Positions 21,743-42,366 are shown, counted from the stretch's first letter. The stretch: DNA of 64,000 nt from Escherichia coli (GCF_024502345.1 NZ_JALDNN010000003.1); one strand, 5' to 3'. Made by a program: numbers and translations. Notes: a model not told the origin generated them from the letters alone.

Positions 21743-22562
21743 GGCACTGTTGCAAATAGTCGGTGGTGATAAACTTATCATCCCCTTTTGCTGATGGAGC
21801 TGCACATGAACCCATTCAAAGGCCGGCATTTTCAGCGTGACATCATTCTGTGGGCCGTACGCTGGTACTGCAAATACGGCATCAGTTACCGTGAGCTGCA
21901 GGAGATGCTGGCTGAACGCGGAGTGAATGTCGATCACTCCACGATTTACCGCTGGGTTCAGCGTTATGCGCCTGAAATGGAAAAACGGCTGCGCTGGTAC
22001 TGGCGTAACCCTTCCGATCTTTGCCCGTGGCACATGGATGAAACCTACGTGAAGGTCAATGGCCGCTGGGCGTATCTGTACCGGGCCGTCGACAGCCGGG
22101 GCCGCACTGTCGATTTTTATCTCTCCTCCCGTCGTAACAGCAAAGCTGCATACCGGTTTCTGGGTAAAATCCTCAACAACGTGAAGAAGTGGCAGATCCC
22201 GCGATTCATCAACACGGATAAAGCGCCCGCCTATGGTCGCGCGCTTGCTCTGCTCAAACGCGAAGGCCGGTGCCCGTCTGACGTTGAACACCGACAGATT
22301 AAGTACCGGAACAACGTGATTGAATGCGATCATGGCAAACTGAAACGGATAATCGGCGCCACGCTGGGATTTAAATCCATGAAGACGGCTTACGCCACCA
22401 TCAAAGGTATTGAGGTGATGCGTGCACTACGCAAAGGCCAGGCCTCAGCATTTTATTATGGTGATCCCCTGGGCGAAATGCGCCTGGTAAGCAGAGTTTT
22501 TGAAATGTAAGGCCTTTGAATAAGACAAAACGCTGCCTCATCGCTAACTTTGCAACAGTGCC
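21743..22562 (+). mobile_element. IS26, copy 2, intact 820 bp (one substitution versus copies 1 and 3)
   Basis: Terminal repeats at 21743 and 22549-22562; ACAAAACGCTGCC near the right end versus ACAAAAGGCTGCC in the other copies; no flanking 8-bp duplication. Confidence 0.95.
21806..22510 (+). CDS. tnpA: IS26 transposase Tnp26
   Basis: Identical translation to copy 1. Confidence 0.95.
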   Translation: MNPFKGRHFQRDIILWAVRWYCKYGISYRELQEMLAERGVNVDHSTIYRWVQRYAPEMEKRLRWYWRNPSDLCPWHMDETYVKVNGRWAYLYRAVDSRGRTVDFYLSSRRNSKAAYRFLGKILNNVKKWQIPRFINTDKAPAYGRALALLKREGRCPSDVEHRQIKYRNNVIECDHGKLKRIIGATLGFKSMKTAYATIKGIEVMRALRKGQASAFYYGDPLGEMRLVSRVFEM

Positions 22563-23246
22563 GTTTTACTTTCCCGCACAATCAACAAGCTGGAGCCGGG
22601 TTCTTGCACATTCCCGCAGGAGTTCAATCATAAGCGTTGGCTGGACCAGGAATTCAATGACGGAATGGCCAAAATGTTTGGCATCTCCTCATGGGATGAC
22701 TTACTGGATGGCCCGAAAAAAGCCATTTTGCCGAGTTCTGCGGCCTGGTATGACCGCAAATTTAAAACCCCCTCAGGAAAGTTTGAGTTCAGATCTGAGC
22801 TGTGTGAGAAAAATGGCCATACGGCGCTGCCGGAATACAAACCGGAGGCGAAAAGCACGCTGCCATTCCACTTGTTTACACCGCATGTGCAGTTCGGTAT
22901 CCATTCCCAATTTATCAACCTTGACTGGATGCAGGTCTTCTATCCGGAGCCGTTTGTCTATATGCATCCGATTTCCGCAGAAAAAAGAGGCATTGCCGAA
23001 AACGACCTGGTGAAAGTGTTTAACACCGTAGGTGAAGTAGAACTGCGTGCGAAGGTGACCGCTAACGTTCCGGAAGATTTCCTGGTGATGTACGAGGCGT
23101 GGTTCCCGAAAAGGAAATACAACGTTCAAAACGTGGTGGCAGATACCCCAGCCGATATGGGGTTGATGAAAACCGGTGCGCCAGGTGCGGCTATCCACAG
23201 TCAGTTTGCGGACATCATTTTGATCAGTAAAGGAGCAGCGGCATGA
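22563..23246 (+). pseudogene. Molybdopterin oxidoreductase catalytic subunit (DmsA/PhsA-like), C-terminal fragment truncated by IS26
   Basis: Frame is open from the IS26 boundary to the stop at 23246; overlaps the Fe-S subunit start (ATGA). Confidence 0.55.
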
Positions 23247-23800
23247 GACGCGCGTTTTTAGTTAATAGCGATAAATGCATCGGCTGCCGTGGCTGTGCAA
23301 TGGCGTGTAAGAGTTTTAACCAGTTGGAACCTGAACGTTTCTGGCGCTATGTCTACCCGCTGGATAAAGAAATTTATCCGCATGAAGAGCGGGCGTTCTA
23401 TTCGCTGGCCTGTAACCACTGCGAAAACCCGGCCTGTCTGGCGGCGTGTCCGGTAGAGGCGTACACCAAGCGTGAAGATGGTGTCGTGGTGCATAACCCA
23501 GAGCGCTGTATTGGATGCAAAAACTGTATCCGCAACTGCCCATACGGTGCGCCGCGTTTTAATGAGGAGACGAAGAAAGCGGAAAAATGCAGCATGTGCT
23601 ACGAGCGCCTTGATGTTGGTATGCAACCGGCTTGCGTGAATGCCTGTCCGGTAGGTGCGCTGACGCTTATCGATCTGGATGCCGATCCTATACCTGACAA
23701 TGCCGTACAGTATCCGCCGGGATTCCCGCGTATGCCGCAGCTTAATCCTGGCACGCGTTTTATCCTTGCGCGTCAGCCGAAGCAGCCGGAGGGTAATTAA
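23243..23800 (+). CDS. 4Fe-4S ferredoxin-type electron-transfer subunit of an anaerobic molybdo-oxidoreductase
   Basis: Four Cys clusters (CIGCRGCAMAC, CNHCENPACLAACP, CIGCKNCIRNCP, CSMC...CVNACP). Confidence 0.8.
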   Translation: MRRAFLVNSDKCIGCRGCAMACKSFNQLEPERFWRYVYPLDKEIYPHEERAFYSLACNHCENPACLAACPVEAYTKREDGVVVHNPERCIGCKNCIRNCPYGAPRFNEETKKAEKCSMCYERLDVGMQPACVNACPVGALTLIDLDADPIPDNAVQYPPGFPRMPQLNPGTRFILARQPKQPEGN

Positions 23801-24567
23801 TGGAAAAGTATGAACTTCCGCTGGTCATTTTTACCGTATTGAGCCAGATGTCGGTTGGGATCACGCTCATTCTGACGCTACGCACGCTGCAAGGAAAACT
23901 GGAAAGCAAACGCCTGTACTGGCTGGTAAGTGGGCTGGTTCTGGCGGTGGCGTCCGTTGCAGCGATCCTGCACCTTGCGCATCCGGATCGCGCCTACGAT
24001 GCCCTGATTAACCTGCAGCACGCCTGGCTGAGCCGTGAAATTCTTGGCGCCACCTTATACGGTGCGGCGGTCGGGGTGACGTTTTTGGCAAAAGGGCACA
24101 AAGCGCCAGCTGTTCTGGCCTCTGTTCTCGGTATCGCGCTGGTGGCGGTGCAGGGGATGACCTATGCTGCCCCGGCAATGGTGGCGATCGCCAACGGTCT
24201 GACAATGCTGTTGTTCTTTATCACGGTGTGGGTGATGGGGTGTGCGGCGATTCCACTGCTTAACCTTGCACCTGCCGTTGCCGCATTACGCCAGGGGATT
24301 GTTGTGTGTATGGCGGTCATGATCGCCGCGCCCATTATCTGGCTAAGCGGCGGCACCATCATGCAGATGACGGCGCATGCCTGGCTGACGTCGCCGCTTT
24401 ATCTGGCGAGTCTGGTGTGTCTGGCGGTGGCCTTTGTGCTAAGCCGTCAGGGAGAGCGTCGCGCAAAAGCGCTTTTTGTCCTGCTGTTTGTTGGCATATT
24501 CCTGAGTCGTCTGACGTTCTTTGGCGATACGATCAGCACCATCGTGAATATCGGTCATTTGTATTGA
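23800..24567 (+). CDS. Integral-membrane anchor subunit (DmsC/NrfD-like)
   Basis: 255 aa, about 8 hydrophobic helices, start overlaps the upstream stop. Confidence 0.6.
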   Translation: MEKYELPLVIFTVLSQMSVGITLILTLRTLQGKLESKRLYWLVSGLVLAVASVAAILHLAHPDRAYDALINLQHAWLSREILGATLYGAAVGVTFLAKGHKAPAVLASVLGIALVAVQGMTYAAPAMVAIANGLTMLLFFITVWVMGCAAIPLLNLAPAVAALRQGIVVCMAVMIAAPIIWLSGGTIMQMTAHAWLTSPLYLASLVCLAVAFVLSRQGERRAKALFVLLFVGIFLSRLTFFGDTISTIVNIGHLY

Positions 24568-24584
24568 TCGTGAGGTAATAAAAA

Positions 24585-24612
24585 CCCCTGTCAGGCGTTA
24601 ACCTGACAGGGG
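24585..24612. terminator. Bidirectional rho-independent terminator between convergent genes
   Basis: CCCCTGTCAGG-cgttaa-CCTGACAGGGG flanked by AAAA upstream and TTTTC downstream. Confidence 0.65.
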
Positions 24613-24636
24613 TTTTCTTTAGCGAATCAGTGGCTG

Positions 24637-25065
24637 TTAACGAACAACCAGCACTGGCAAAGTCGCGTGGCGGACAACGCTGGAAGCGTTTGAGCCGAGC
24701 AGATGGGTGCTGATTGATGGGTTACGCGACCCAATGACAACGACATCTGCATTCAACTCTTCACCCAACTCGTTGACCACATCACGGACACTGCCAAAGC
24801 GGACGTGTTGCTTAATACGGGAAGGATCGATGCTGAAGTGACCGACCATCGTTTGCAGACGGGTTTCCGCTTCGTGTTGCAGATGCTCTTCAAAACGACG
24901 GACATCGGCCGCAAAGCGGTGCAGGCTTAAGCTCGCTGAGCCTGGCAGCACATGCAGCAGATGGATAACCCCTTTATCCTGGGCCAGAAATTCTGCATGG
25001 CGAATAGCCTTGTCGCTCAGTTCCATTTCGAATACATCAACAGGCATTATGATTGTGTTGTACAT
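24637..25065 (-). CDS. uspG: Universal stress protein (UspG/UspF type)
   Basis: AAGGAG RBS; [48 protein letters not shown]...; adjacency to rnk favours uspG. Confidence 0.75.
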
Positions 25066-25248
25066 AAACATTCTCCTTGTCATTACATGAACACATAACA
25101 GCATAGTATTAAAAATGATTCTGTCAGTCACGACACAGATTTATGTTTTGCGAACAGGAAAGAAAGCGAGGAGCAGGGAGATCTAACCGGAAAGAGGATG
25201 CAGATGCATCCTCTGTAAGATAAAGCGAGTGGCTTTGATAAGACAGAG

Positions 25249-25659
25249 TTAGCGCAGGTAGTCGCCTGCAGCTTCAGGCTGGTACTCAAGCTCAATAACT
25301 TCGAGGTGCGTTGAGGTCCCGCCTGGCAGTTCCCAGTGAATGGTATCACCAACGCGCAGCCCCAAAAGTGCAGCGCCGACAGGTGCCATTACCGAAAGCT
25401 GTGTGCTGCTGTCAGTCATAGTGGCCGGATACACCAGGGTACGCACACGGACTTCGCCATCACTCAGATTGCGGAATTTCACGCGGCTGTTCATGGTCAC
25501 GACATCGTGCGGCATGGTTTCTGGAGAACACATTTGGGCACGATCCAGCTCGGCGTTAAGGGCGTCGGCAATCGGTAAACCAGCAAACGCAGGTTGCTCC
25601 AACAGGCGGTCAATGCGTTCCGCATCGAGGTCGTTAATGATGATAGTTGGTCTGGACAT
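25249..25659 (-). CDS. rnk: Regulator of nucleoside diphosphate kinase (GreA/GreB-like)
   Basis: [79 protein letters not shown]... Confidence 0.9.
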
Positions 25660-25889
25660 TTATTACTCCATGTCGTCGATACTGCGGGTGCGCAGGTAAA
25701 TAATCCCAAAAGAAAACCCTCACCGTCAGGCGGCAAGGGTTTAGCTTTTATGATGATACTGAGACTTACCCCATGTTTGAAGTGATTTAGTTCACATTCA
25801 GGCAAATCATCAATATTGTCGCGTATGGTGTAATGTCAGTCAGTTAACGAACCTAAGGTAATAAATCTGTTGCCTCCGTCGCATTGCTA

Positions 25890-26070
25890 CGTTCACCTTA
25901 TGTTATTCACTTCTCTGAAACCATCCTACCTGTGAACGTGTTAAGGGTACTATCGCCGTACCCTTAACAATCCCGGCGGGAGCCTGGGTTGCAAGGGAGG
26001 CGGCGGTGAGCCTCCCTTGCTCGTTCACGGGTATCAGTGCTTCAGAGAAGTGATACCGCTGAGGTGAACG
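25890..26070. other. Highly structured intergenic element: three nested long-range helices enclosing two perfect hairpins
   Basis: Pairings 25890-25898/26062-26070, 25907-25919/26041-26053 (13 bp), 25932-25938/26022-26028; hairpins GTTAAGGGTAC...GTACCCTTAAC (25940-25968) and GCAAGGGAGG...CCTCCCTTGC (25991-26020); stems conserved while spacers differ. Confidence 0.4.
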
Positions 26071-26238
26071 GAACCCTGAGCCGGGATCACATGTTCCCTA
26101 TAATGCTTAACTGACAAGCATTACGCGTATGGTGTGATTTTAGCCGAAAAACGTGATCGTTCTCCAATTTGCATTATGCTTTTTAAGCGCTCGCTGCGGG
26201 CGCGTCAAACAACTCAGTGTTCCGCGACAGGAGATCTC

Positions 26239-27069
26239 ATGAGCCAGTACGACAAACTTACCTTGAAAGACGGCAGCTATTTGCATTTTAAAGATTGGGG
26301 AAGTGGACAGCCCATTGTCTTCAGTCATGGTTGGCCGCTGACGGCAGATGCGTTTGAGGATCAGATGTTATTCCTCGGGTCGAAAGGATTTCGTGTGATC
26401 GCCCATGACAGGCGTGGGCATGGGCGTTCGGCCCAACCCTGGGATGGTCACAATATGGAGCAGTATGCTGACGATCTGGCTGAACTTACCGCGCATCTCA
26501 ATCTTAAAGATGCCGTCCATGTCGGACACTCTACCGGCGGCGGGGAAGTGGCGCGGTATATTGGCCGCCATGGAACGCAGCGGGTCGCAAAAGCGGTGTT
26601 AATTGGCGCGGTGACGCCCATTATGATCAAGACTGACTTTAATCCAAATGGCGTGCCGAAAGAGGTATTCGATGGCATCCGTGAGGGGGTTGTGAACGAT
26701 CGCGCCGCCTTTTTCTATGAATTGACCGCTGCATTCTATGGCTACAACCGTCCTGGCGCAAAAGAGTCGAAAGCCGTCAGGGAAAGTTTTGTTGAACAGG
26801 GTTTACAAGGTTCCATCAAAGCGTTGTACGACTGTATCCACGCGTTTTCGGAAACAGATCTGCGTGAGGATCTCAAAAAGATGACCATCCCGACGCTGGT
26901 GATCCACGGTGATGACGATCAGATTGTCCCGTTTGAAACCTGCGGAAAGGTCGCGGCGGAAATACTGCCTGATTCGCAGTTGAAGGTATATGTCGGCGGC
27001 TCGCATGGCATTTGCACCACCCATAAACAACAGATCAACGGTGACCTGCTCAACTTTATTCAGTCGTAA
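26239..27069 (+). CDS. Alpha/beta-hydrolase (non-haem haloperoxidase/esterase type)
   Basis: GGAG RBS; nucleophile elbow GHSTGGG; 277 aa. Confidence 0.75.
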
Positions 27070-27165
27070 TCGTTGGCAGATTGTTCTACGCTGATCTTCT
27101 TTTTCCAGGGGGATGAGCGAAGCATAATTTGTGCTGCGCTGACGTTAACTTCAACAGGGAACGCT

Positions 27166-27789
27166 ATGTATTTCTATCAACCGTCACAGGGACACGGCTT
27201 ACCGCATGACCCGCTAAATGCCATCATTGGACCGCGCCCGATTGGTTGGATTGCGTCGCGTGACGGCAATGGTCGGCACAATCTGGCACCATACAGTTTC
27301 TTTAACTGTTTTAACTATCATCCGCCGATTATCGGTTTCGCCAGCAGCGGCTGGAAAGACAGCGTGCAGAATATTATTGAAACCGGTGAATTTGTCTGGA
27401 ACCTGACGACTCTTGAGCTGGCCACTGCGATGAACGAAACGTCAGCCAGCTTGCCGCACGGTGAGGACGAGTTTTTTGCCGCCGGGCTTAGCAAGGCAGA
27501 TAGCCGGATAGTCAACGTGCCGCGCGTGGCGCAAAGCCCGGTCAATTTTGAGTGTCGCTTATCGCAAAGCCTGCAACTAACTACCGCTGATGGCTCACCG
27601 GTTGATACCTGGCTGGTATTGGGGGAAGTGGTGGGCATCCACATCGATGAAACGCTCCTGGAGGACGGCATCTATCAGACGGCGAAAGCGAAGCCGGTAC
27701 TGCGCGCAGGTGGGCCAACGGCATATTATTCGATCAGTGAAACACACCGTTTTGATTTAGTTCGCCCGGACGCCCGAGCAAAACGCTAA
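27166..27789 (+). CDS. Flavin reductase-like domain protein
   Basis: 208 aa with ...IGWIASRDGNGRHNLAPYSFFNCFNYHPPIIGF... typical of flavin-reductase-like FMN-binding proteins. Confidence 0.65.
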   Translation: MYFYQPSQGHGLPHDPLNAIIGPRPIGWIASRDGNGRHNLAPYSFFNCFNYHPPIIGFASSGWKDSVQNIIETGEFVWNLTTLELATAMNETSASLPHGEDEFFAAGLSKADSRIVNVPRVAQSPVNFECRLSQSLQLTTADGSPVDTWLVLGEVVGIHIDETLLEDGIYQTAKAKPVLRAGGPTAYYSISETHRFDLVRPDARAKR

Positions 27790-27830
27790 GCTTACGGACC
27801 GACGCCAGCTTGCAGCGTCGGTCGCAAGTT

Positions 27831-28637
27831 TCAATATCCCACTTTGTCGATAATAAACTGTTTACCGCAGATACCTGGATGCGGTTGCGGTAAGAATGAC
27901 TGTGCAGATAACGTCTGGTTGATGTTGTCGGCTTTCAGGGATAACTGGATCTCAGTGAGATACGCCGGATTGCCGTGGCAGCTTAGCTTCACAGCTTTGA
28001 CGTTCTCTTTGCCCCAGCTTTTGGCAACTGCGGCGTCAAATGCGTTACGGCTGACAGTTTTGCCGTAGTTTTCCGCCAGGAATTTGCCCACCTCGCTGTT
28101 CTTAACCTCATTATTCAGCCGTACCATCGTGCCAAAGTACGCGTCGGGATCAAAACCGAAACACGCGCCATGTTTGGCATACTCGTAACGTTCCAGACAG
28201 GATCTCCCTCCAGCGCCGGGCATTACGGCGCTGAGTTTTGCTGCGCTTTCCAGCGACAGCCCGGTTTCGGGGGCCGCGCATTTACGGCTGGCACGTGCTT
28301 CAGGCAGGTTGGGAATAGGGCGAGTCGCGCAGCCAAAACGCATCCAGCGGCGGTTGTCGACTCCACGGGCGGCAATGGATTTAGGCAGGCTGGGCCATAA
28401 ACCGTGAACGGTCAGGAAATCCGCTTTGTCTGCGCTCTCTTTTTGTAAACGACATTCGTCAGGCTCCTGACGATTACGCTCGTGTTGGCTCTGACAAAAT
28501 CCGGTTTGCCAGGAGAGGGCCAGCACGTAGCTGTCAAAATCAGTGTATTGTTTTGCCTGAAGTTCATCGGCCTGAGCTGCAGAAACTGGCAGCAGAAGCG
28601 CTGCCAGTAATGAAGAATAACGCCATGTTGATGTCAT
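27831..28637 (-). CDS. rna: Ribonuclease I (RNase T2 family), periplasmic
   Basis: Signal peptide then ...YVLALSWQTGFCQSQ...FLTVHGLWP...RYEYAKHGACFG...; near-full-length match to RNase I. Confidence 0.9.
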   Translation of the reverse strand: MTSTWRYSSLLAALLLPVSAAQADELQAKQYTDFDSYVLALSWQTGFCQSQHERNRQEPDECRLQKESADKADFLTVHGLWPSLPKSIAARGVDNRRWMRFGCATRPIPNLPEARASRKCAAPETGLSLESAAKLSAVMPGAGGRSCLERYEYAKHGACFGFDPDAYFGTMVRLNNEVKNSEVGKFLAENYGKTVSRNAFDAAVAKSWGKENVKAVKLSCHGNPAYLTEIQLSLKADNINQTLSAQSFLPQPHPGICGKQFIIDKVGY

Positions 28638-28747
28638 GATGATTTCGGATACTTATATAAATTCTGAATATCATCTATTTAATCATAAAAAATGCCAGTC
28701 AGGTTTAGCTGACTGGCATCATTTTCATCAGGTGTGAACCGAAATGA

Positions 28748-30211
28748 TTAGCTCCACATCGCCAGAATCGGCCAGCCGACCAGCAGAAGCATAGAGATGT
28801 AGATAACGCCGAAGATAGCACCCAGACGCCAGTAGTCTTTGGACTTCACATAACCACAGCCGTAGATGATAACGCCAGGGCCTGTTGCATATGGAGTCAG
28901 ACAGCCCATGATACCGATGGACAGTACCAGCAGGATACACAGGTGTTCCATCGGCACGCCCGGGATACCTTTACCGACAGCCAGAATAACCGGCAGCATG
29001 GTGGCAGTGTGTGCAGAAAGGCTGGCAAACAGGTAGTGAGCAAAGTAGAACACCAGCACCAGCACGATTACGGTCGCGTTAGGCGAGAAGCCTTCCAGGT
29101 GCGTGCTCATGGTGTTGGCGAACCAGTCGATGAAGCCTGAACGGGTTAAACCATTCGCCATAACGACCAGCGTGGCGAGGTTAACCAGGGTGTTCCATGC
29201 GCTGTTATAGCGGGTAATGTCTTTCCACGGTACCACATGCAGCGCCAGCATCAGGGAGACAGCAAGCAAACCCACTGCGGTTGCATCAATCAGTTTACCA
29301 CCGAAGACCCACAGGCCCAGGCTGAGCAGAACCAGACCGATCAGCGTTATCTCTTTACGGGTCAATTTACCCATGCCTTTCAGTTCATCACCGGCCCATG
29401 CGGCAACTTCAGCACTGTGAGTGACCTCTGGTTTGTACAGAACGTATGACAACCACGGAGCAACGATCAGCAAAATAATACCAACCGGCAGGAAGCTGAG
29501 GAACCATTGCAGCCAGCTGATTTGAATACCGGCAATTTTGTTGACGAATTCCAGACCCAGTACGTTTGGCGCAGCGCCGGTCACGAACATAGAGGAGCTC
29601 AGGCTGGTACTGATTACCATCATCCACATCAGGTATCCGCCGATACGGCGCGCGGAAGGATCGTTCGGGAATGATTTAAACAGCGGCGGCAGGTTTTTGA
29701 TAACCGGGAATACGGTACCACCGGTACGCGCGGTGTTAGACGGTGTAAACGGCGCCAGCAGAATGTCGATGATAACAATCGCATAGCCCAGCGTCAGGGT
29801 GCGTTTACCCATGAATTTCACCAGGAACAGCGCGATACGACGACCCAGACCGGTGACTTCATAACCCAGTGCGAAGATAAACGCACCAAACACCAACCAC
29901 ACGGTGGTGCTGGAGAAGCCCGCCAGACCCCATTTCAGCGCTTGCTTACCCGCTTTAAATGCCGGGTCGGCCAGTTCTGAAGCATCAAACAGCAGATAGT
30001 TGCTGCCGATAACGCAGATCGTTACGGCGATAAAGCTGATCGCTGTTGCCGGAATTGGCTCCAGGATCATACCGACGATCATCGCCACAAACACGGCAAA
30101 GTAGTGCCAGGCCTGTGGAGGCATTCCATCAGGGACGGGGATAAGAAACATGACGCCCATTACGACCAATGGGGCCAGTAACTTCCATATTTTATCTTTT
30201 GCTAAAGACAT
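28748..30211 (-). CDS. citT: Citrate:succinate antiporter (DASS family)
   Basis: 487 aa polytopic membrane protein; follows citG in the conserved cit cluster order. Confidence 0.9.
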   Translation of the reverse strand: MSLAKDKIWKLLAPLVVMGVMFLIPVPDGMPPQAWHYFAVFVAMIVGMILEPIPATAISFIAVTICVIGSNYLLFDASELADPAFKAGKQALKWGLAGFSSTTVWLVFGAFIFALGYEVTGLGRRIALFLVKFMGKRTLTLGYAIVIIDILLAPFTPSNTARTGGTVFPVIKNLPPLFKSFPNDPSARRIGGYLMWMMVISTSLSSSMFVTGAAPNVLGLEFVNKIAGIQISWLQWFLSFLPVGIILLIVAPWLSYVLYKPEVTHSAEVAAWAGDELKGMGKLTRKEITLIGLVLLSLGLWVFGGKLIDATAVGLLAVSLMLALHVVPWKDITRYNSAWNTLVNLATLVVMANGLTRSGFIDWFANTMSTHLEGFSPNATVIVLVLVFYFAHYLFASLSAHTATMLPVILAVGKGIPGVPMEHLCILLVLSIGIMGCLTPYATGPGVIIYGCGYVKSKDYWRLGAIFGVIYISMLLLVGWPILAMWS

Positions 30212-30236
30212 GTGTGTGATTCTCCGGAAAGGATCT

Positions 30237-33201: not shown

Positions 33202-33210
33202 TTTTTTGCC

Positions 33211-34119: not shown

Positions 34120-34412
34120 TGGCAATCCTCCCATGGCAGTGCCGGAATACCGCCAGCGCGGGCCAGTAGTGCTTCCAGTCGCGCACGTAAAATGCAGTCC
34201 AGTGCGCCTTTATCATCAACATTTAATTGCACGCCGCGTACGTTGTAGCGGGACAGAACGTCCAGGATGGTGGTCCGAATGGCATCACCGAACTGTTTTT
34301 CGACGCTACTGTTAACCTGCAGGTCAATATCCTGCGAATCGAGTGGGGCGATGCGAATCATCACATCACCGGACTCGAGTGTGCCTGCGACGGCTGCCTG
34401 GTTTATTTTCAT
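34116..34412 (-). CDS. citD: Citrate lyase acyl carrier protein (gamma subunit)
   Basis: 98 aa, [24 protein letters not shown]... Confidence 0.9.
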
Positions 34413-35485
34413 TTTTCACCTGTTGCTAATGCGGGGGTATTTTGGCGGACTGCCGCACCCGATGAGGCTCGTTCAACCATGCTTTGCAGATAGTGCAGCG
34501 TGGCGTCAGGGACCAGGGATGCGATAGCCGTGAGATCTTTTTTAACCAGCAGCTTGCGCACCCAGGAGGCGGAAATCGGCATCTCCTGGAAGCACAGCCG
34601 CTCAATTTCCACCAGTTCAATCGGTGGGGCGGGAAGCGTTGGGGTCTCCAGCCAGTAGCGCATATCGTTGTTGTACTGGGAGGTGACGGAGCAATACGGC
34701 TCGGTACCGACGAAACGATGTGTAACGCCGAGAGCCGGTGCCAGGTACTGGCGGAAGATTTTCAGGTCTATTTCGGTGTAGCAGTGGTTAATAACGCTCT
34801 GCTCTTTGATGAAGTAGCACGGGAACGTGGCGCGGGAAATGATGTATTCCGAACCGCGATGCACGGTTAAACGTGGAATATCTTTTGTCCCTTTAAGCAC
34901 CAGATCCAACCGGTCTTCATACGGAAACCGTGAGGTATCCTCTTTGACCAAAAACAGATGCAGCCAGTCACATTGTGCGGCCGCCTGTTGGATCAGAAAA
35001 CGATGTCCGTTGGTGAAGGGGTTGGCGTTCATGACGATGCAACCAATTTTTTTCCCTTCACGACGCTGTTTTGCCAGAGATTCAGCGTAACGTTTCAGAC
35101 GCGTGGTGCTGTTTTCCATCAGCACCATAATGCCGGGAACGCTGGTCAGCGTAGAAAAGCCACACTGTTTAAACAGCGATTCGTACTCGGTTTTGGTATA
35201 GATGAAGAGGTGCGTACAGTGGCGCTCATAGGCGAGGTTGATTAACTCGGTCGCCAGCGTCAGCGCTAAGCCTTCGCCCCGTACGGATTCGCAGATGGCG
35301 ACACATTTTATAATATTCCCAGCGATACCGCCGCAGGCAATCAGGCGGTCGTCTCGGGTGACGGTGATAAATACTTCGACGGTGGTGTCAACGCTCAAAT
35401 CATTCTCTTTCAGAAATTGCGTGATAGCCGCCATCTTTTTATTTTCTGAGCGTTTAACTTGCGTGAATATATTATTACCGAACAT
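34409..35485 (-). CDS. citC: [Citrate (pro-3S)-lyase] ligase
   Basis: 358 aa, N-terminal acetyltransferase-like and C-terminal nucleotidyltransferase-like regions ([16 protein letters not shown]). Confidence 0.85.
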
Positions 35486-35875
35486 AGTGAATAGAGCCCC
35501 GATGCTATATTTGTTACTGGGTTTCTGTTTTTGTTGCTCTGCTTAGCAACCTGATAACGTTTTGTTTGCAATTGAAGGGAATGGTTTTTTATTACGGAGT
35601 ATTTCTTTTTTTCCCTGCTGCATACATCGTAAGGGGTATTTTGGAGGTAATTTTTGATTTATTTCACAATAAGTTAGAAGGTTTTAATGTGTTTTATGGT
35701 TTTAAGTTTTTTAATTAATTTAACCTCGAAATAGCGTGTGGTTTTAATTTGTTTAATTGATTTAAAGTGGGGAATCTGCAACGATCTTGTTTTATACACG
35801 TAACGTGTAAATAAAACATTTCTATTACAACTACAATGAGAAATAAGTTTCGGGCAACGTGGATGAGGAAGATAT
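35486..35875. promoter_or_regulatory. Divergent AT-rich control region between citC and citA
   Basis: 390-bp AT-rich spacer between divergent operons; cit operons are controlled from this region in enterobacteria. Confidence 0.45.
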
Positions 35876-37537
35876 ATGGCTGAGCAGAAAAATAAAACAC
35901 GGTTTCCTTTTTTCCGCAGCCTGGCGTTTCCTTTACGCATCTTTCTGCTTATTTTGGTCGTTTCTGTTTTTATCATCGCCGCCCTGGCACAATACTTTAC
36001 CGCCAGCTTTGAAGATTATCTGGCCGCGCATGTCCGCGATATGGCAATGAACCAGGCCAAAATCATCGCCTCTAACGACAGTATCATCACGGCAGTTAAA
36101 CATCGTGATTACAAGCGTTTGGCGACGATTGCCGACAAACTGCAGAGCGGAACTGACTTCGACTATGTGGTTATCGGGGATACCAACTCCATTCGTCTAT
36201 ATCATCCGAACCCGGAAAAGATTGGCTACCCGATGCAGTTCACCAAACCCGGTGCGCTGGAAAAAGGGGAAAGCTACTTTATTACCGGTAAAGGGTCCAT
36301 CGGGATGGCAATGCGCGCTAAAACGCCCATCTTTGATGACGATGGCAAAATCATTGGCGTAGTCTCAATTGGTTATCTGATCAGCAAAATCGATAGCTGG
36401 CGATCGGATTTCTTACTCCCGATGGCCGGTGTGTTTATCTTGCTGTTGTTGGTTCTTATGCTGCTATCCTGGTTTTTCGCTGCCCATATTCGTCGGCAGA
36501 TGTTGGGTATGGAACCGAAACAAATTGCGCGGGTGGTACGTCAGCAGGAAGCGTTGTTCAGCTCGGTATATGAAGGATTGATTGCCGTGGATCCTGATGG
36601 ATATATCACCGCAATAAACCGCAGTGCGAGGAAAATGCTGGGGCTGTCTTCACCAGGGCGAAAGTGGCTTGGAAAACCGGTGAGTGAGGTGGTTCAGCCA
36701 GCGGACTTTTTCACCCAACAGATTGCGGAAAAACGACAGGATGCGATGGTAAACTTTAATGGCCTGAGCGTTATCGCCAACCGTGAAGCGATTCGCTCTG
36801 GTGACGAACTGCTTGGGGCAATCATCAGTTTTCGTAGTAAAGATGAAATTGCTACCCTTAATGCGCAATTAACGCAGATCAAACAGTATGTAGAGAGCCT
36901 GAGAACGCTGCGTCATGAGCACCTGAACTGGATGTCGACCATCAATGGCCTGCTGCAAATGAAAGAATATGACAAGGTTCTGGCCATGGTGCAGGGAGAA
37001 TCCCAGGCGCAACAGCAACTGATTGACAGCCTGCGTGGCGCGTTTGCCGATCGTCAGGTCGCCGGTCTGTTGTTTGGCAAGGTTCAGCGCGCACGGGAAC
37101 TGGGCCTCACCATGACTATCGTTCCGGGGAGCCAACTGCATCAACTCCCCGAGGGGCTGGATAGCACAGAGTTTGCAGCAATTGTTGGCAATCTGCTTGA
37201 TAATGCATTTGAAGCGAGCTTACGCACCCAGCAAGGCAACAAGGTCGTAGAGCTCTATTTGAGCGATGAAGGGGATGACGTGATCATCGAAGTTGCCGAT
37301 CAGGGATGCGGTGTGCCGGAAGCATTGCGTGAGAAAATATTTGAACAGGGTGTGAGCACCCGTACCGATGAACCAGGTGAACATGGCATCGGTTTGTATC
37401 TGATTGCAAGTTATGTGAGGCGCTGTGACGGGGTGATTACGCTCGAAGATAACTCCCCTTGCGGTACCTTATTTTCTTTATTTCTTCCGAAAGTGAAAAA
37501 AAATAATGACGGAACCATTAACGCTGTTGATCGTTGA
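35876..37537 (+). CDS. citA: Citrate-sensing sensor histidine kinase
   Basis: Two TM helices flanking a periplasmic sensing domain, PAS, HisKA and ATPase (GIGLYL) regions. Confidence 0.9.
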   Translation: MAEQKNKTRFPFFRSLAFPLRIFLLILVVSVFIIAALAQYFTASFEDYLAAHVRDMAMNQAKIIASNDSIITAVKHRDYKRLATIADKLQSGTDFDYVVIGDTNSIRLYHPNPEKIGYPMQFTKPGALEKGESYFITGKGSIGMAMRAKTPIFDDDGKIIGVVSIGYLISKIDSWRSDFLLPMAGVFILLLLVLMLLSWFFAAHIRRQMLGMEPKQIARVVRQQEALFSSVYEGLIAVDPDGYITAINRSARKMLGLSSPGRKWLGKPVSEVVQPADFFTQQIAEKRQDAMVNFNGLSVIANREAIRSGDELLGAIISFRSKDEIATLNAQLTQIKQYVESLRTLRHEHLNWMSTINGLLQMKEYDKVLAMVQGESQAQQQLIDSLRGAFADRQVAGLLFGKVQRARELGLTMTIVPGSQLHQLPEGLDSTEFAAIVGNLLDNAFEASLRTQQGNKVVELYLSDEGDDVIIEVADQGCGVPEALREKIFEQGVSTRTDEPGEHGIGLYLIASYVRRCDGVITLEDNSPCGTLFSLFLPKVKKNNDGTINAVDR

Positions 37538-38186
37538 GGATGAAACGCTACTGGCGGAAATGCATGCTGAATATATCCGCCATATACCCGGTTTCAGCCA
37601 GATATGGCTGGCGGGTAATCTTGAGCAGGCGAGGATGATGATTGAGCGTTTTAAGCCCGGTCTGATACTGCTCGATAACTACTTGCCGGACGGCAAGGGA
37701 ATTACGTTGCTGCATGAGCTGACCCAGGCGCGCTATCCGGGCGGCGTAGTGTTTACCACGGCGGCCAGCGATATGGAAACGGTCTCCGAGGCTGTGCGCA
37801 GCGGTGCGTTTGATTACCTGGTCAAACCCATTGCCTACGAGCGGCTGGGGCAGACCCTGACGCGTTATCAACAACGTCGACGCATGTTGGCGGGGAATGA
37901 CAGCGCCAGCCAAAAGCAGATTGATGAAATGTTTAATGCCTACGCGCGGGGCGAACCGAAAGGGGATTTACCGACTGGGATTGATGCGTTAACACTAAAT
38001 GCAGTGTTGAAATTATTCGCCGACCCGACGGTACACCATACTGCGGAAACGATCGCCCAGGCGCTTACCATCAGCCGAACGACTTCCAGACGCTACCTGG
38101 AGTACTGTGCCAGCCGTCATTTGATTATTGCGGAGATTATTCACGGTAAGGTAGGCAGGCCGCAGCGTATTTATCATGGCGGCTAA
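37506..38186 (+). CDS. citB: Response regulator of the CitA/DpiB two-component system
   Basis: Start overlaps the citA 3' end; MTEPLTLLIVEDETLLAEMHAEYIRHIPGF... Confidence 0.9.
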   Translation: MTEPLTLLIVEDETLLAEMHAEYIRHIPGFSQIWLAGNLEQARMMIERFKPGLILLDNYLPDGKGITLLHELTQARYPGGVVFTTAASDMETVSEAVRSGAFDYLVKPIAYERLGQTLTRYQQRRRMLAGNDSASQKQIDEMFNAYARGEPKGDLPTGIDALTLNAVLKLFADPTVHHTAETIAQALTISRTTSRRYLEYCASRHLIIAEIIHGKVGRPQRIYHGG

Positions 38187-38200
38187 ATGCTGATTTCTGA

Positions 38201-38290
38201 CGTAGGCCGGATAAGATGTTTTAGCATCGACATCCGGCAACGGTGCGGTTTAAATGCCGGATGCGGCGTAGATGCCTAATCCGGCCTACA
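38201..38290. repeat. REP/BIME-type enterobacterial extragenic palindromes
   Basis: GTAGGCCGGATAAG...CATCCGGC and GCCGGATGCGGCGTAGATGCCTAATCCGGCCTAC match the REP consensus. Confidence 0.7.
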
Positions 38291-38302
38291 TTTCACTGAG
38301 TA

Positions 38303-39044
38303 TCAGCCGCCAACGACGGCTGAAGAAGAACCTGGTACCATCACTTCAGTTGCGATAATCACAACCAACAGCCCAACCAGAACCGGAACCGAGGTACGTT
38401 TCACCACTTCGAACGGAGAAATCTTTGCCATACCTGCGACAGCGACAACCACGCCGGAGACCGGGGAGATTGTGCGCCCAAGGTTTGACGCCTGCAGCAT
38501 CGGGATAACAAGGTAAGCCGGGTTAATGCCGGAAGAATGCGCCAGCTTAGGGATCATTTCAACGAAGGCGTAGAACGGGGCGTTACCGGAACCCGTAGTC
38601 ATTGCCGCCAGCATAGTCAGGATCACCAGCACCATCATCAAGATAATGCTCGCTGAACCAAACGAGGTGGCGATAGAAATCAGACTCTGAATAAAGCCGA
38701 TTGTGCTCAGACCCTGGGCAAAAACACCCGCAGCGACTAACAACATCACCACGTTAGCAAAGGCATCCGCCATGCCACGGTAAGCGACTTCCAGACCAGA
38801 GAAAACCTTTTGGGTGTTGAACCCACGTACGAACTCCAGAATAGCCGCGATGAGCATGCACAGAACCAGAATCGTAATGATGTGCAACTGCGGGCCCCAT
38901 TTACCATCAAAAATCAGGACGCCAACGATCGGGGTAAACGGCAGAATGGCGTAAAATGACGGGGCAGTCGTGGTGATTTCAGCCACATCTAACATTTCAT
39001 GAGAAATGTTCTCTTTTTTATCCAGAAAACGCTGCCAGAAAAAG
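38303..39044 (-). pseudogene. dcuC: Anaerobic C4-dicarboxylate transporter DcuC, C-terminal about 245 codons, 5' end removed by IS26
   Basis: Translation matches the C-terminal half of DcuC and runs into the IS26 left repeat at 39045. Confidence 0.8.
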
Positions 39045-39832
39045 GGCACTGTTGCAAATAGTCGGTGGTGATAAACTTATCATCCCCTTTTGCTGATGGA
39101 GCTGCACATGAACCCATTCAAAGGCCGGCATTTTCAGCGTGACATCATTCTGTGGGCCGTACGCTGGTACTGCAAATACGGCATCAGTTACCGTGAGCTG
39201 CAGGAGATGCTGGCTGAACGCGGAGTGAATGTCGATCACTCCACGATTTACCGCTGGGTTCAGCGTTATGCGCCTGAAATGGAAAAACGGCTGCGCTGGT
39301 ACTGGCGTAACCCTTCCGATCTTTGCCCGTGGCACATGGATGAAACCTACGTGAAGGTCAATGGCCGCTGGGCGTATCTGTACCGGGCCGTCGACAGCCG
39401 GGGCCGCACTGTCGATTTTTATCTCTCCTCCCGTCGTAACAGCAAAGCTGCATACCGGTTTCTGGGTAAAATCCTCAACAACGTGAAGAAGTGGCAGATC
39501 CCGCGATTCATCAACACGGATAAAGCGCCCGCCTATGGTCGCGCGCTTGCTCTGCTCAAACGCGAAGGCCGGTGCCCGTCTGACGTTGAACACCGACAGA
39601 TTAAGTACCGGAACAACGTGATTGAATGCGATCATGGCAAACTGAAACGGATAATCGGCGCCACGCTGGGATTTAAATCCATGAAGACGGCTTACGCCAC
39701 CATCAAAGGTATTGAGGTGATGCGTGCATTACGCAAAGGCCAGGCCTCAGCATTTTATTATGGTGATCCCCTGGGCGAAATGCGCCTGGTAAGCAGAGTT
39801 TTTGAAATGTAAGGCCTTTGAATAAGACAAAA
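39045..39832 (+). mobile_element. IS26, copy 3, positions 1-788 (interrupted by an IS66-family insertion)
   Basis: Left repeat at 39045; sequence matches copies 1 and 2 up to ...AGACAAAA and then switches to GTAAGCGT... Confidence 0.9.
39108..39812 (+). CDS. tnpA: IS26 transposase Tnp26 (intact)
   Basis: Same translation as the other copies. Confidence 0.95.
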   Translation: MNPFKGRHFQRDIILWAVRWYCKYGISYRELQEMLAERGVNVDHSTIYRWVQRYAPEMEKRLRWYWRNPSDLCPWHMDETYVKVNGRWAYLYRAVDSRGRTVDFYLSSRRNSKAAYRFLGKILNNVKKWQIPRFINTDKAPAYGRALALLKREGRCPSDVEHRQIKYRNNVIECDHGKLKRIIGATLGFKSMKTAYATIKGIEVMRALRKGQASAFYYGDPLGEMRLVSRVFEM

Positions 39833-39862
39833 GTAAGCGTTAAGTGAGCGCCGTATTGACGG

Positions 39863-41455
39863 CTATTTATTGGTGAGATCTACGTTCCATGGCAGCAGTT
39901 CGGCCACTTTGTTGATGGGCCACTCCGGCAATACGCTCAGGATATGGCGAAGGTAACCCTCTGGATCGATACCGTTCAGCCTGCACGTTCCGATCAGACC
40001 ATACAGCAGGGCACCACGTTCACCACCATGATCACTGCCGAAGAAGATGTAGTTTTTCTTGCCCAGACAGACCGCTCGTAGCGCGCGCTCAGCAGCGTTA
40101 TTATCCGGCTCTGCCAGACCATCATCGCAGTAGTAACACAGGGCATCCCACTGGTTCAGTGCATAAGCGAACGCCTCGCCTAACCGGGATTTTTTCGACA
40201 GAGTGGCTCTTTTCTCCACCAACCAGTCATGCAGGGATATCAGCAACGGTTTACTTCGGGACCGTCTGGCGGCCAGCCGCTGAGATGCCGGAAGGCCGCG
40301 TATTTCCTCTTCTATCGCGTATAACTCACTGATGCGCTTCAGAGCCTCCTCTGCTGTGGCCGTCCGGGTGCTGATATAGACGTCATGGATTTTGCGCCGC
40401 GCATGAGCCCAGCATGCCGCTTCTGTCAACGGGCCACCTTCACGCTCTGCGCTGAACAACCTGTCGTACCCTGCGAAGGCATCTGCCTGCAGCACGCCAT
40501 GATAGTGCCGAAGATGTTGCTGAGGGTGTTTCCCCTGTCGGTCCGGTGAGAAGGCGAACCATGCCGCTGGCGGATCTGATGAACCCGCGCTTCTGTTATC
40601 ACGGACATATGTCCAGATACGCCCGGTTTTCGTCTTCTTTCTGCCCGGCGCCAGCACGGGCACCGGAGTGTCATCCGTATGCAGTTTGCGGCAGTCCATC
40701 ACGTAGTGGTAGAGGGCTTCATCCAGCGGGGCCATTAACCGGCAGCACGCATCCACCCAGTTGGAGAGCAGCGCACGACTCAGATCCACACCCTGACGGG
40801 CAAAGATTTCGCACTGGCGATACAGCGGCAGGTGTTCACAGTATTTGGCCGTTAACACGCGGGCCAGCAGACCCGGCCCGGCGATGCCCCGGTCGATAGG
40901 ACGTGAGGGCGCTGGCGCTTCAACGACGCAGTCGCATCGGGTACAGGCCTTTTTCACTCTGACCGTGCGGATCACTTTCAGGGCGCTGGAGACCAGCTCC
41001 AGTTGCTCCGCGCTGACTTCGCTGAGATAGGCCATATCACTACCGCAACCAGGACAGCTGGTTTCAGCTGGCTCCAGTCTGTTTATTTCGCGGGGAAGAT
41101 GTTCCGGTAACGGGCGACGATGACGGGACTGGCGCAACTGACGCGGAACCTGCTGATCATTGTCCCGGCCGTTGTAACGATCGCTTTGCTGCTCCTGCTG
41201 TTTCAGCAGGGCTTCGGCTTCTTCGACCTGCCGGCGTAGCTTTTCTGAACGGGTACCGAACAGCATTCGGCGCAGTTTTTCTATCTGAGCCCGCAGATAT
41301 TCTATTTCACGCTCTTCGTTCTCTATTTTCTCTTCTGCGCGGGCCAGCGCCGAACGCAGGAACGACTCAGTCTCAGCAACGAGACTGAGCTGGCTGTCTT
41401 TCTGGCGAAGCGCGTCTTCCAGCGCAGCGATACGGGCGAGATAGTCCTGACTCAT
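39863..41455 (-). CDS. tnpC: IS66-family transposase TnpC
   Basis: 530 aa with N-terminal coiled coil, zinc-finger region and DDE core. Confidence 0.85.
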   Translation of the reverse strand: MSQDYLARIAALEDALRQKDSQLSLVAETESFLRSALARAEEKIENEEREIEYLRAQIEKLRRMLFGTRSEKLRRQVEEAEALLKQQEQQSDRYNGRDNDQQVPRQLRQSRHRRPLPEHLPREINRLEPAETSCPGCGSDMAYLSEVSAEQLELVSSALKVIRTVRVKKACTRCDCVVEAPAPSRPIDRGIAGPGLLARVLTAKYCEHLPLYRQCEIFARQGVDLSRALLSNWVDACCRLMAPLDEALYHYVMDCRKLHTDDTPVPVLAPGRKKTKTGRIWTYVRDNRSAGSSDPPAAWFAFSPDRQGKHPQQHLRHYHGVLQADAFAGYDRLFSAEREGGPLTEAACWAHARRKIHDVYISTRTATAEEALKRISELYAIEEEIRGLPASQRLAARRSRSKPLLISLHDWLVEKRATLSKKSRLGEAFAYALNQWDALCYYCDDGLAEPDNNAAERALRAVCLGKKNYIFFGSDHGGERGALLYGLIGTCRLNGIDPEGYLRHILSVLPEWPINKVAELLPWNVDLTNK

Positions 41456-41485
41456 GACCCCATTTATAATGCGGTCATGCGCTTT

Positions 41486-41836
41486 TTACAACATCGTCAG
41501 TGAGTTAAGGCGTGCAGTTTTAGGTTGCCGCCAGTCCAGCTTATCGAGGAGCATGGCGAGTTGTGAGCGGGTGATGGCGATTTTGCCGTCGCGTACAGCA
41601 GGCCAGACGAACTGTCCCTCTTCCAGACGTTTGGTAAACAGACACAGACCGTCAGCATCAGCCCAGAGGATCCTCACGGTGTCACCTTTACGACCACGGA
41701 AGATAAACAGGTGGCCGGAGAACGGATTGTCATCAAGAACATGCTGGACCAGTTCGCCCAGACCATTGAAGGACTTACGCATATCGGTGACCCCGGCAAC
41801 CAGCCAGATACGAGTGCCTGACGGTAAGGGTATCAT
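41486..41836 (-). CDS. tnpB: IS66-family accessory protein TnpB (orfB)
   Basis: MIPLPSGTRIWLVAGVTDMRKSFNGLGELVQHVL...; ATGA overlap with orfA. Confidence 0.8.
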   Translation of the reverse strand: MIPLPSGTRIWLVAGVTDMRKSFNGLGELVQHVLDDNPFSGHLFIFRGRKGDTVRILWADADGLCLFTKRLEEGQFVWPAVRDGKIAITRSQLAMLLDKLDWRQPKTARLNSLTML

Positions 41837-42240
41837 CGGCTCCTCCCGGTCAGCTCGCGGATCAGCGTTTTCAGAAGTGCAGGTGATAAATCCCCGGACA
41901 GACGCAGGCTGGCACCGCCGACAGTCACCTCGCATGTCATGGCCTCGCGGCAGGCTGGAGCGGCGGGTTCATAGTGCGGCTCAGCATGGTGTGACAGGGC
42001 CATATCAGGCAGGACAACGGGGATAACAGAGTCTTGCTCTCTGATTGACCGTTGTATTTCATCGGGCAGAAGATGTCTGTAACGCTGGCGCCAGGTAAAC
42101 AGCAGATTGTCATTAATTCCATTATCCCGCGCCAACCGGGCAACACAGGCTCCAGGCTGATATGACTTTTCGACGAGAGCCAGCTTAAAGTCCATTGAGT
42201 AGGACGCCCGCGCCCTGCGGGGCTGAAGAGTGTTTGACAT
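41833..42240 (-). CDS. IS66-family accessory protein TnpA (orfA)
   Basis: 135 aa, HTH-containing N-terminus. Confidence 0.75.
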   Translation of the reverse strand: MSNTLQPRRARASYSMDFKLALVEKSYQPGACVARLARDNGINDNLLFTWRQRYRHLLPDEIQRSIREQDSVIPVVLPDMALSHHAEPHYEPAAPACREAMTCEVTVGGASLRLSGDLSPALLKTLIRELTGRSR

Positions 42241-42334
42241 TGATAGAGTCCATTAACGTTAATAAGAGGACTCTATCATCGTCAATCGTTAGTAATCGCA
42301 ACAGGCGGCAGTGGCTTGACGCTTACAGACAAAA

Positions 42335-42366
42335 GGCTGCCTCATCGCTAACTTTGCAACAGTGCC
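42335..42366 (+). mobile_element. IS26 copy 3, terminal 32 bp including the right inverted repeat
   Basis: GGCTGCCTCATCGCTAACTTTGCAACAGTGCC resumes the IS26 sequence after the duplicated AGACAAAA. Confidence 0.9.

Follow-up and report, generated by a model that had tools for sequence, protein, structure and literature searches.

Analysis of the region 21743-42366 of the window (the whole 64,000-nt stretch of Escherichia coli DNA, GCF_024502345.1, NZ_JALDNN010000003.1) points to an IS26-bounded module with the architecture of a pseudo-compound transposon, which would be carried by an IncHI1-type conjugative plasmid and whose core would have been recently captured from the chromosome of Citrobacter freundii (probability of about 0.85). 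Indeed, the copies of IS26 are in direct orientation, the genes at both ends of the segment are cut at the IS26 termini and target duplications are absent, in agreement with the earlier note, which had read the structure as an IS26 pseudo-compound transposon.

The segment bracketed by IS26 extends from 22563 to 39044 (16,482 bp). It begins with a 3' fragment of a molybdopterin oxidoreductase gene of the DMSO reductase family (22563..23246, + strand; PGAP pseudogene 'missing N-terminus'), followed by two complete genes of the same oxidoreductase operon, coding for a 4Fe-4S subunit (23243-23800, +; Pfam Fer4 families) and a DmsC-like membrane anchor (23800-24567, +; Pfam DmsC). The next genes, identified from ORFs and annotation, are uspG (24637-25065, -) and rnk (25249-25659, -), then come an alpha/beta hydrolase gene (26239-27069, +) and a flavin reductase gene (27166-27789, +), and then rna, coding for ribonuclease I (27831..28637, -; ORF and annotation). 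The citrate genes are citT, coding for a citrate/succinate antiporter (28748-30211, -; Pfam CitMHS/Na_sulph_symp), the citrate lyase activation genes citG (30237-31139, -; Pfam CitG), citX (31111-31665, -; Pfam CitX) and citC (34409-35485, -; Pfam Citrate_ly_lig), and the citrate lyase genes citF (31669-33201, -; Pfam CitF), citE (33211-34119, -; Pfam HpcH_HpaI) and citD (34116-34412, -; Pfam ACP). They are followed by the dpiB/citA sensor kinase gene (35876-37537, +) and the dpiA/citB response regulator gene (37506-38186, +), both identified from ORFs and annotation. All citTGXFEDC ORFs are full length, with 0 indels relative to the chromosome. According to the ORFs, PGAP and Pfam, a complete E. 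coli-type cit set is thus encoded, namely the CitT antiporter, the lyase subunits, the activation genes and a divergent two-component system. The earlier gene list (uspG, rnk, two extra genes, rna, citTGXFEDC and citAB, i.e. dpiBA) is entirely present, but it had left out the two complete oxidoreductase subunit genes. The two extra genes are those of the hydrolase and the flavin reductase; they are native to the C. freundii locus, being present in the matching chromosomal loci of C. freundii, and the stretch that contains them (26239..27789) has no match in the alignments with the E. coli locus, which cover 71% of the segment in three pieces.

The dpiA-dcuC intergenic region contains two REP-like units in inverted orientation (BIME-like; 38201..38290), as had been noted earlier. 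The REP-like core occurs at 38206 and 38256 only across the whole 64-kb window, and the 100-nt stretch that contains both cores (38196-38295) forms a long hairpin with a fold energy of -45 kcal/mol. The segment ends with a 3' fragment of dcuC (38303..39044, -; PGAP pseudogene 'missing N-terminus'). The native oxidoreductase gene codes for 756 aa and is intact in the chromosomal loci L083-L087, and native dcuC codes for 461 aa and is intact in L089-L097. Alignment with the intact chromosomal loci showed that both genes are cut exactly at the IS26 termini and lack their N-terminal parts, as previously claimed for the boundary genes; the dcuC side of the dcuC'-IS26 junction reads ...CCAGAAAAAG up to the IS26 end. 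The genes of the segment are exclusively metabolic and regulatory, and it brings no transposition functions itself.

Three copies of IS26 are present in the window, with 14-bp terminal repeats at 15569/16388, 21743/22562 and 39045/42366, and tnp26 lies on the + strand in all of them according to ORF calls and PGAP annotation, so that the two copies around the segment (21743-22562 and 39045-42366) are in direct orientation, as reported before. Copy 1 (15569..16388, +, 820 bp), recognized from its terminal repeats, its identity to the other copies and the tnp26 annotated in a near-identical record, lies outside the boundaries of the cit unit and forms the edge of a neighbouring swappable module (16389-21742). 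Copy 2 (21743..22562, +, 820 bp), which forms the left edge of the captured segment, is intact with both terminal repeats, differs from copy 1 by a single base (G789C) and is followed on its right by GTTTTACT, which the junction alignment identifies as C. freundii oxidoreductase sequence. Copy 3, at the right edge, is split: nucleotides 1-788 are found at 39045..39832 (+; C685T), with an intact tnp26 (39108-39812; protein WP_001067855.1), and nucleotides 781-820, including the right terminal repeat, at 42327..42366 (+). Both terminal repeats are thus retained, and the total length is 3,322 bp because of a 2,494-bp IS66-family insertion after nucleotide 788, which separates the right repeat from the rest. 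The right end at 42366 given by the earlier note is correct, but this interruption had gone unmentioned.

The IS66-family element (39833..42326, -) encodes tnpC (39863-41455), tnpB (41486-41836) and tnpA (41833-42240), has terminal repeats that start with GTAAGCG, and is flanked by its own 8-bp duplication AGACAAAA at 39825-39832 and 42327-42334. Its three proteins are also encoded on the C. freundii plasmid pNFYY361-1. Only 32 bp of IS26 sequence (nucleotides 789-820) lie to the right of this insertion. With so little left, the right end of copy 3 may react poorly in the conservative pathway, for which extended identity is required at the end that reacts (PMC7885326).

The 8-bp flanks differ at each copy of IS26 (ggccaaaa/gaagaaac, cgcaaacg/gttttact and agaaaaag/gtcgctga for copies 1 to 3), and no matching 8-bp target-site duplication was found at any of the three, as the earlier note had observed, nor was any partner found among all ten IS26 copies of the plasmid record NZ_LR890350.1. 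The absence of duplications is consistent with movement via a translocatable unit or a cointegrate rather than as a classical compound transposon, and the occurrence of one junction in different contexts gives indirect evidence of it.

Outside two swapped blocks, the window shares 99.97-99.98% identity with NZ_LR890350.1, a circular E. coli plasmid of 300,631 bp that is typed IncHI1A/MOBH/MPF_F, is conjugative and carries the IncHI trh transfer genes; the replicon type is taken from this near-identical record. The sole flank common to the IS26 copies of NZ_LR890350.1 is a duplicated neighbouring sequence. On the IncHI backbone, the segment has as neighbours a heat-resistance locus, a Tn7-like element and a Tn3-family remnant. 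The remnant is a Tn3-family transposase gene without its 5' end (42367..44834, +; 'missing N-terminus'), which is cut by IS26 copy 3 and provides the flank gtcgctga. Judging from these sequences, the flanks of the segment are plasmid DNA of an IncHI1-type conjugative plasmid. The chromosomal gene order and the REP elements could also be those of a native locus of the host chromosome into which the IS26 copies had inserted in situ, and a chromosomal contig with intact duplications was the scenario that the earlier note had set against its own reading. However, the flanks are plasmid DNA, target duplications are absent, identity with the E. coli locus is 79.5%, and the chromosome continues differently past both junctions; the junction alignments accordingly rule out in situ insertion.

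The segment is 99.95% identical to the native cit locus of the chromosome CP154587.1 of C. freundii NFYY361 (6-7 mismatches per 12-13 kb), in which the synteny is native on both sides (ahpCF...dcuC-pagP-cspE-crcB-lipA), and 99.3% identical to CP058318.1 (sister record: C. freundii M92); the species label of these chromosomes rests on the names given by the submitters to neighbouring accessions (NZ_CP154588.1 being C. freundii NFYY361). The representatives of other Citrobacter species share 87-96% identity with the segment (C. portucalensis 95-96%, C. youngae 93%, C. braakii 92-93%). A scan of GTDB representatives, which gave no representative of C. freundii sensu stricto, had a best identity of 93-96%, and the donor was found via exact-protein look-ups. 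The cit locus of E. coli, present in 5,422 of 5,426 genomes, is approximately 79.5% identical. Beyond both IS26 junctions, the aligned C. freundii chromosome continues differently from the window. Near-identity and synteny, clearly above those of the other species, thus designate C. freundii as the donor, with endpoints in the oxidoreductase gene and in dcuC. Comparison with enterobacterial chromosomes therefore bears out the capture of the cit locus from such a chromosome that had been proposed earlier.

Across the window, NZ_LR890350.1, L088, L086/L095 and the chromosome, nine sites are variable in 16,482 bp, three of which are private to the chromosome. The dcuC'-IS26 junction is common to at least four assemblies that are a handful of SNPs apart, and is identical in L088 and L095. 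These nine sites in four mobile copies and the chromosome indicate, at the level of sequence, one recent capture. Repeats of IS26 are a classic source of mis-joins, and C. freundii chromosomal contigs could have been joined into a plasmid through them by an assembly artefact or contamination. Such an origin is highly improbable, given that the junctions recur base for base in two further assemblies as well as in a complete, independent circular record, and that the mobile copies have in common SNPs that set them apart from the closest chromosome.

One of the sibling structures is longer. Indeed, in L086/L095 (GCA_042748925.1) the same dcuC'-IS26 junction is present, and the captured DNA reaches 2.1 kb further left, to an IS1; in L086 the 756-aa oxidoreductase gene is complete and the IS1 cuts a chaperone gene, in plasmid/phage-plasmid surroundings. 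At three sites, L086/L095 have the ancestral base and both the window and NZ_LR890350.1 a derived one. Since this sibling shares the right junction yet extends further left, the left IS26 boundary probably arose by later trimming and the two boundaries are probably of different age, an order of events that rests on one sibling whose 3.15-Mb contig, JBHZEU010000001.1, was read over 34 kb and might be a mis-join. A leftward walk along this contig with a P1-like tail-assembly protein returned ordinary P1-like plasmids and not the contig itself. Alternatively, a single translocatable unit could have had both present boundaries from the start, the longer IS1-bounded form having recovered the missing 2.1 kb at a later time from a C. 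freundii chromosome through homologous recombination. Both boundaries are clean IS26 ends, as expected from one adjacent deletion (PMC8722046), and the mobile copies are so close to C. freundii chromosomes that recombination in a Citrobacter host is possible. This one-step origin is nevertheless unlikely: it requires an additional recombination and an independent IS1 event, the longer form has plasmid and P1-like DNA on both sides rather than native chromosome, and the ancestral bases at the three sites fit the shorter form as the younger branch.

Under the preferred reading, a capture followed by trimming, IS26 would first have entered dcuC in a C. freundii cell, either by copy-in cointegrate formation from a resident plasmid or by insertion and adjacent deletion. 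The adjoining chromosome would then have been freed with one IS26, as a circular translocatable unit or via aberrant cointegrate resolution, and joined to the plasmid beside an IS26 already present there, either in a targeted conservative reaction or through homologous recombination; no 8-bp duplication would be expected at this step because neither process leaves one. The original capture would have been at least 2.1 kb longer leftward, the present left boundary being formed later by an IS26 adjacent deletion or rearrangement, and the IS66-family element would have entered the right IS26 downstream of tnp26. No C. freundii chromosome that is native apart from an IS26, as an intermediate of this route would be, was found. 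Translocatable units are known to form by adjacent deletion and to insert by conservative targeted insertion, and pseudo-compound transposons to move via units formed by homologous recombination (PMC8722046, PMC4894685, PMC7885326). The unit could still be mobile: recombination across the 788 bp common to the bounding IS26 copies would free a unit composed of IS26 and 16.5 kb, and the left end of either IS26 would still be available for the conservative reaction. Carriers are rare, with one among 72,556 PLSDB plasmid records and one among 5,426 E. coli genomes; among the metagenome contigs scanned, none matched the dcuC'-IS26 junction exactly, and an exact-protein look-up of the 193-aa truncated oxidoreductase ORF returned only one unrelated metagenome fragment of 1.2 kb. 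This rarity in plasmids, E. coli genomes and metagenomes argues against frequent movement.

In cit systems of the E. coli type, CitT swaps citrate for succinate, CitDEF splits citrate into acetate and oxaloacetate once CitC, CitX and CitG have activated it, and DpiB/DpiA turn on the cit genes with citrate under anaerobiosis. The cit promoter region of the segment is identical to that of the chromosome, with no indels in the alignments and no variable site between 33695 and 37279. Acquisition of a Cit+ phenotype by promoter capture at an IS26 end was considered and rejected, as over 6 kb separate citT from each IS26 and the sequence upstream of it is still the native one. Since the E. coli host of the near-identical plasmid already has a citrate fermentation pathway, which the segment would duplicate in a diverged form, it is most likely passenger DNA. 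It is improbable that the segment is retained for a benefit to the plasmid or the host, either through plasmid DpiBA adding to DpiA dosage or through an extra Citrobacter cit system aiding anaerobic use of citrate in the gut. Effects of E. coli DpiA on SOS induction and beta-lactam survival and on plasmid destabilization have both been described (reviewed in PMC6863773), and an added DpiA dosage could, if real, raise SOS induction and short-term survival of beta-lactams, or destabilize competing plasmids.

The same genes, in the same order and orientation, are found between rna and dcuC in the E. coli chromosomal locus citCDEFXGT-dpiBA (citAB), from which the window copy differs by its nucleotide sequence (approximately 79.5% identity) and its plasmid location; the two extra genes between rnk and rna and the DMSO-reductase-type operon upstream of uspG are features of the Citrobacter version and not of E. 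coli. Citrate determinants of R27-like plasmids encode a citrate carrier that allows citrate to be used aerobically, and are not known to encode the citrate lyase pathway. A citrate-related trait (the 'citrate operon') is also present on R27-like IncHI1 plasmids (bioRxiv 10.1101/334409). R-prime and F-prime plasmids offer another parallel, being conjugative plasmids with an unbroken block of donor chromosome, which in them results from IS-mediated integration and aberrant excision; unlike in them, IS26 is present here on both sides, inside an IS26-rich accessory region, and the block can therefore also be read as the insertion of a translocatable unit. A search of the literature found no description of this IS26-cit unit. 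Published precedents that the structure matches include the recruitment of blaSHV and oqxAB by IS26 from the chromosome of Klebsiella pneumoniae (Tn6010-type structures). There too, direct IS26 copies surround a piece of enterobacterial chromosome with end genes cut at the IS ends, on conjugative plasmids, and translocatable units together with conservative targeted insertion account for movement and assembly (PMC4894685, PMC8722046). The present structure differs from them by its 16.5-kb cargo without a resistance gene, its C. freundii donor, the bounding IS26 split by an IS66-family element and the apparently secondary left boundary.

In summary, this is a clear but ordinary example of IS26 putting chromosomal DNA on plasmids, and it leaves the current view of IS26 and of citrate metabolism unchanged. 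When an E. coli assembly contains a second cit/dpi locus of foreign origin, that locus can be misread as contamination and could confuse typing or metabolic inference. The module would represent a clean, datable case of IS26 moving a large non-resistance chromosomal block between genera, from Citrobacter to E. coli, on a conjugative IncHI1 plasmid, with sibling structures in which DNA next to the same IS26 copies appears to have been trimmed step by step and modules to have been swapped, and it would illustrate that IS26 traffic extends beyond resistance genes.

Three long direct repeats begin at positions 15569, 21743 and 39045 of the window, with 14-bp IS26 terminal repeats at 15569/16388, 21743/22562 and 39045/42366. 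IS26 copies 1 (15569-16388) and 2 (21743-22562), both 820 bp long and on the + strand, differ by a single base (G789C). Copy 3 (39045-42366, + strand) aligns to IS26 nt 1-789 (with C685T) and then to nt 781-820, with 2.5 kb between. Indeed, it is split by a 2,494-bp IS66-family element (39833-42326; GTAAGCG... terminal repeats; tnpA, tnpB and tnpC on the - strand), flanked by an 8-bp duplication, AGACAAAA, that corresponds to IS26 nt 781-788. The element sits downstream of the transposase gene tnp26, which is intact; all three tnp26 genes lie on the + strand and encode an identical protein. The earlier note had correctly described two direct IS26 copies around the cit segment and the end of the right copy at 42366, but omitted this interruption. 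In PLSDB, the IS26::IS66 junction occurs only in NZ_LR890350.1, a near-identical relative plasmid of the window, and it is therefore a lineage marker. The IS66-family element is also carried by the Citrobacter freundii plasmid pNFYY361-1 (NZ_CP154588.1).

The bracketed DNA (22563-39044; 16,482 bp) begins with the 3' part of a molybdopterin oxidoreductase gene, followed by that operon's 4Fe-4S and DmsC-like genes, both complete. Then come uspG, rnk, genes for an alpha/beta hydrolase and a flavin reductase, rna, citT-citG-citX-citF-citE-citD-citC, dpiB-dpiA (citAB), two REP-like units and, last, a 3' fragment of dcuC. All the genes and REP elements listed previously were found; the two complete oxidoreductase subunit genes had been left out of that list.

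The segment shares only about 79.5% identity with the cit locus of E. coli itself, which 5,422 of the 5,426 complete E. coli genomes carry. A search with CitG against species-representative genomes gave the C. freundii complex as best representatives (C. portucalensis, 95-96%; C. youngae, 93%; C. braakii, 92-93%; C. werkmanii, 92%). When the DmsC-like protein and DpiB were looked up by exact protein match, multi-megabase contigs came back that keep the native gene order (ahpC-ahpF, chaperone, oxidoreductase ABC, uspG...dpiBA, dcuC, pagP, cspE, crcB, lipA, lipB, dacA) and share 99.0-99.95% identity with the window. The nearest is CP154587.1 (6 mismatches over 12,008 bp and 7 over 13,169 bp), whose species name comes from the sister accession NZ_CP154588.1 (C. 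freundii NFYY361); CP058318.1, neighbouring a record labelled C. freundii M92, is 99.3% identical. Beyond the exact IS26 ends the chromosome runs on with unrelated sequence, so that comparison with enterobacterial chromosomes gives both a C. freundii donor locus and endpoints at the IS26 termini, where the end genes had been said to be truncated.

IS26 is known to make cointegrates only: copy-in generates an 8-bp duplication, and the targeted conservative reaction beside an existing IS26 leaves none; circular translocatable units from adjacent deletion are the presumed first step of gene recruitment, and homologous recombination between direct copies also yields such units (PMC8722046, PMC4894685). 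The 8-bp flanks of copies 1-3, compared in every pairing, do not match, as the earlier note had reported, and no target duplication was found at any of the ten IS26 copies of NZ_LR890350.1, two of which have the same left flank. The segment appears to fit the published scheme, since its IS26 copies are direct, its end genes are cut at the IS termini and duplications are lacking. With a C. freundii donor and plasmid flanks, this supports the proposed pseudo-compound transposon with a captured cit locus. The segment would have reached the plasmid either as a free circle or, in an R-prime-like manner, through aberrant resolution of a plasmid-chromosome cointegrate. For the conservative reaction, the reacting end must share extended identity (PMC7885326); on its right side, past the IS66-family insertion, copy 3 has just 32 bp of IS26 (nt 789-820). 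Because its left 788 bp and tnp26 are retained, copy 3 could still undergo recombination or left-end reactions.

The region is matched across its full length by NZ_LR890350.1, plasmid 2 of E. coli MSB1_9D from a human rectal swab in Australia. This circular 300,631-bp record is typed in PLSDB as IncHI1A, MOBH, MPF_F and conjugative; it encodes two initiators of RepB type as well as the IncHI trh genes for transfer. Identity is 99.97-99.98% over 1-16388, 21742-53387 and 60557-64000. Two blocks differ: 16389-21741 (serine recombinase, gstA, gloB and an IS91/ISCR-like fragment, versus ferritin, IS5, relE/parE and IS110) and 53388-60556 (sulP(-like), arsC, arsB and ISNCY, versus IS3, an STM4504-family gene and ISNCY). 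The window thus belongs to a sibling plasmid distinct from that record, its own plasmid being absent from the collections searched. Ten IS26 copies populate the accessory region in which the segment sits, where adjoining IS26-bounded modules vary between sibling plasmids, and the 16389-21741 difference looks like IS26-mediated module swapping. That module, wholly unlike its counterpart in the record, is instead matched by an Enterobacter cloacae IncL/M plasmid, and the SNP state of copy 1 differs between window and record. Coordinates inferred from the NZ_LR890350.1 annotation, shifted by 247 bp, place a locus of heat resistance (sHSP, clpK, cls, ftsH, hsp20-GI, yfdX1/2, hdeD-GI) at about 3830-13808, ending near copy 1 and adjoining Tn7-like tnsD/tnsE genes (1-2151). 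A Tn3-family transposase gene (42367-44834) has its 5' end cut by copy 3. Outside the window, NZ_LR890350.1 carries further IS-bounded, chromosome-like modules (51962-59587, 171402-191784, 196430-202978, 210085-211236) with rpoH, a Mla-like ABC system, glgBCAP-pgm, malT, a sucrose PTS operon and nhaA.

The same dcuC'-IS26 junction and segment occur in two further assemblies. In GCA_052935275.1 (locus L088, 314,650-bp contig), the dcuC' junction is separated from the IS26::IS66 copy by an additional IS26 and a 1.2-kb unit with a ParB-like HTH gene (region L088 13170-18535). C685T is present in both IS26 copies, the pattern that insertion of a translocatable unit beside the IS26::IS66 copy would give. 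In GCA_042748925.1, a long form spans L086 1-8760 and L095 13990-21662 of contig JBHZEU010000001.1 (3.15 Mb), either a chromosome-integrated plasmid or a mis-join. Its right end is a plain IS26 followed by IS3 and plasmid-type hsdMSR; on the left, Citrobacter DNA extends 2.1 kb further, with a complete 756-aa oxidoreductase gene, to a chaperone gene cut by IS1 beside a P1-like phage-plasmid fragment. An intact copy of the Tn3-family gene lies upstream of the long form, and its 3' end is identical to that of the window's truncated gene (44319-44868). Across the window, NZ_LR890350.1, both assemblies and the NFYY361 chromosome, only nine sites vary over 16,482 bp (three chromosome-private; three derived and common to window and NZ_LR890350.1), none disrupting a gene, which indicates one recent capture from a lineage near NFYY361, rearranged afterwards. 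Since deletion cannot restore lost DNA, the simplest reading is that the longer left arm came first and that the IS26 boundary within the oxidoreductase gene arose in a later IS26 event.

The unit is rare, being found in 1 of 72,556 plasmid records and 1 of 5,426 E. coli genomes; its dcuC'-IS26 junction had no match in metagenomes, and literature searches found no published description of it. The nearest known cases are the recruitments of blaSHV and oqxAB by IS26 from the K. pneumoniae chromosome (PMC4894685), from which it differs in lacking a resistance gene, in size and donor, and in having one of its flanking IS copies interrupted. R27-like IncHI1 plasmids have a 'citrate operon' (bioRxiv 10.1101/334409), which is probably a different determinant. 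The earlier observation is confirmed, and its interpretation holds up in refined form: IS26-mediated chromosomal capture is already known, and this cit unit is a further example.

Judging from its genes, the cargo is an anaerobic citrate system of the E. coli type, comprising the antiporter CitT, citrate lyase (CitDEF, with CitC/X/G) and the regulator DpiBA; oxaloacetate decarboxylase and CitS genes are absent from the segment. All its genes for this system are intact, with a regulatory region that does not differ from that of the chromosome. In E. coli, extra DpiA causes replication-origin interference, SOS induction and better short-term beta-lactam survival (PMC6863773), and selection through extra DpiA dosage would be a low-probability alternative. 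Because nearly all complete E. coli genomes searched have their own pathway, the cargo is expected to add no new capability to E. coli; passenger DNA is the likeliest reading of the segment.
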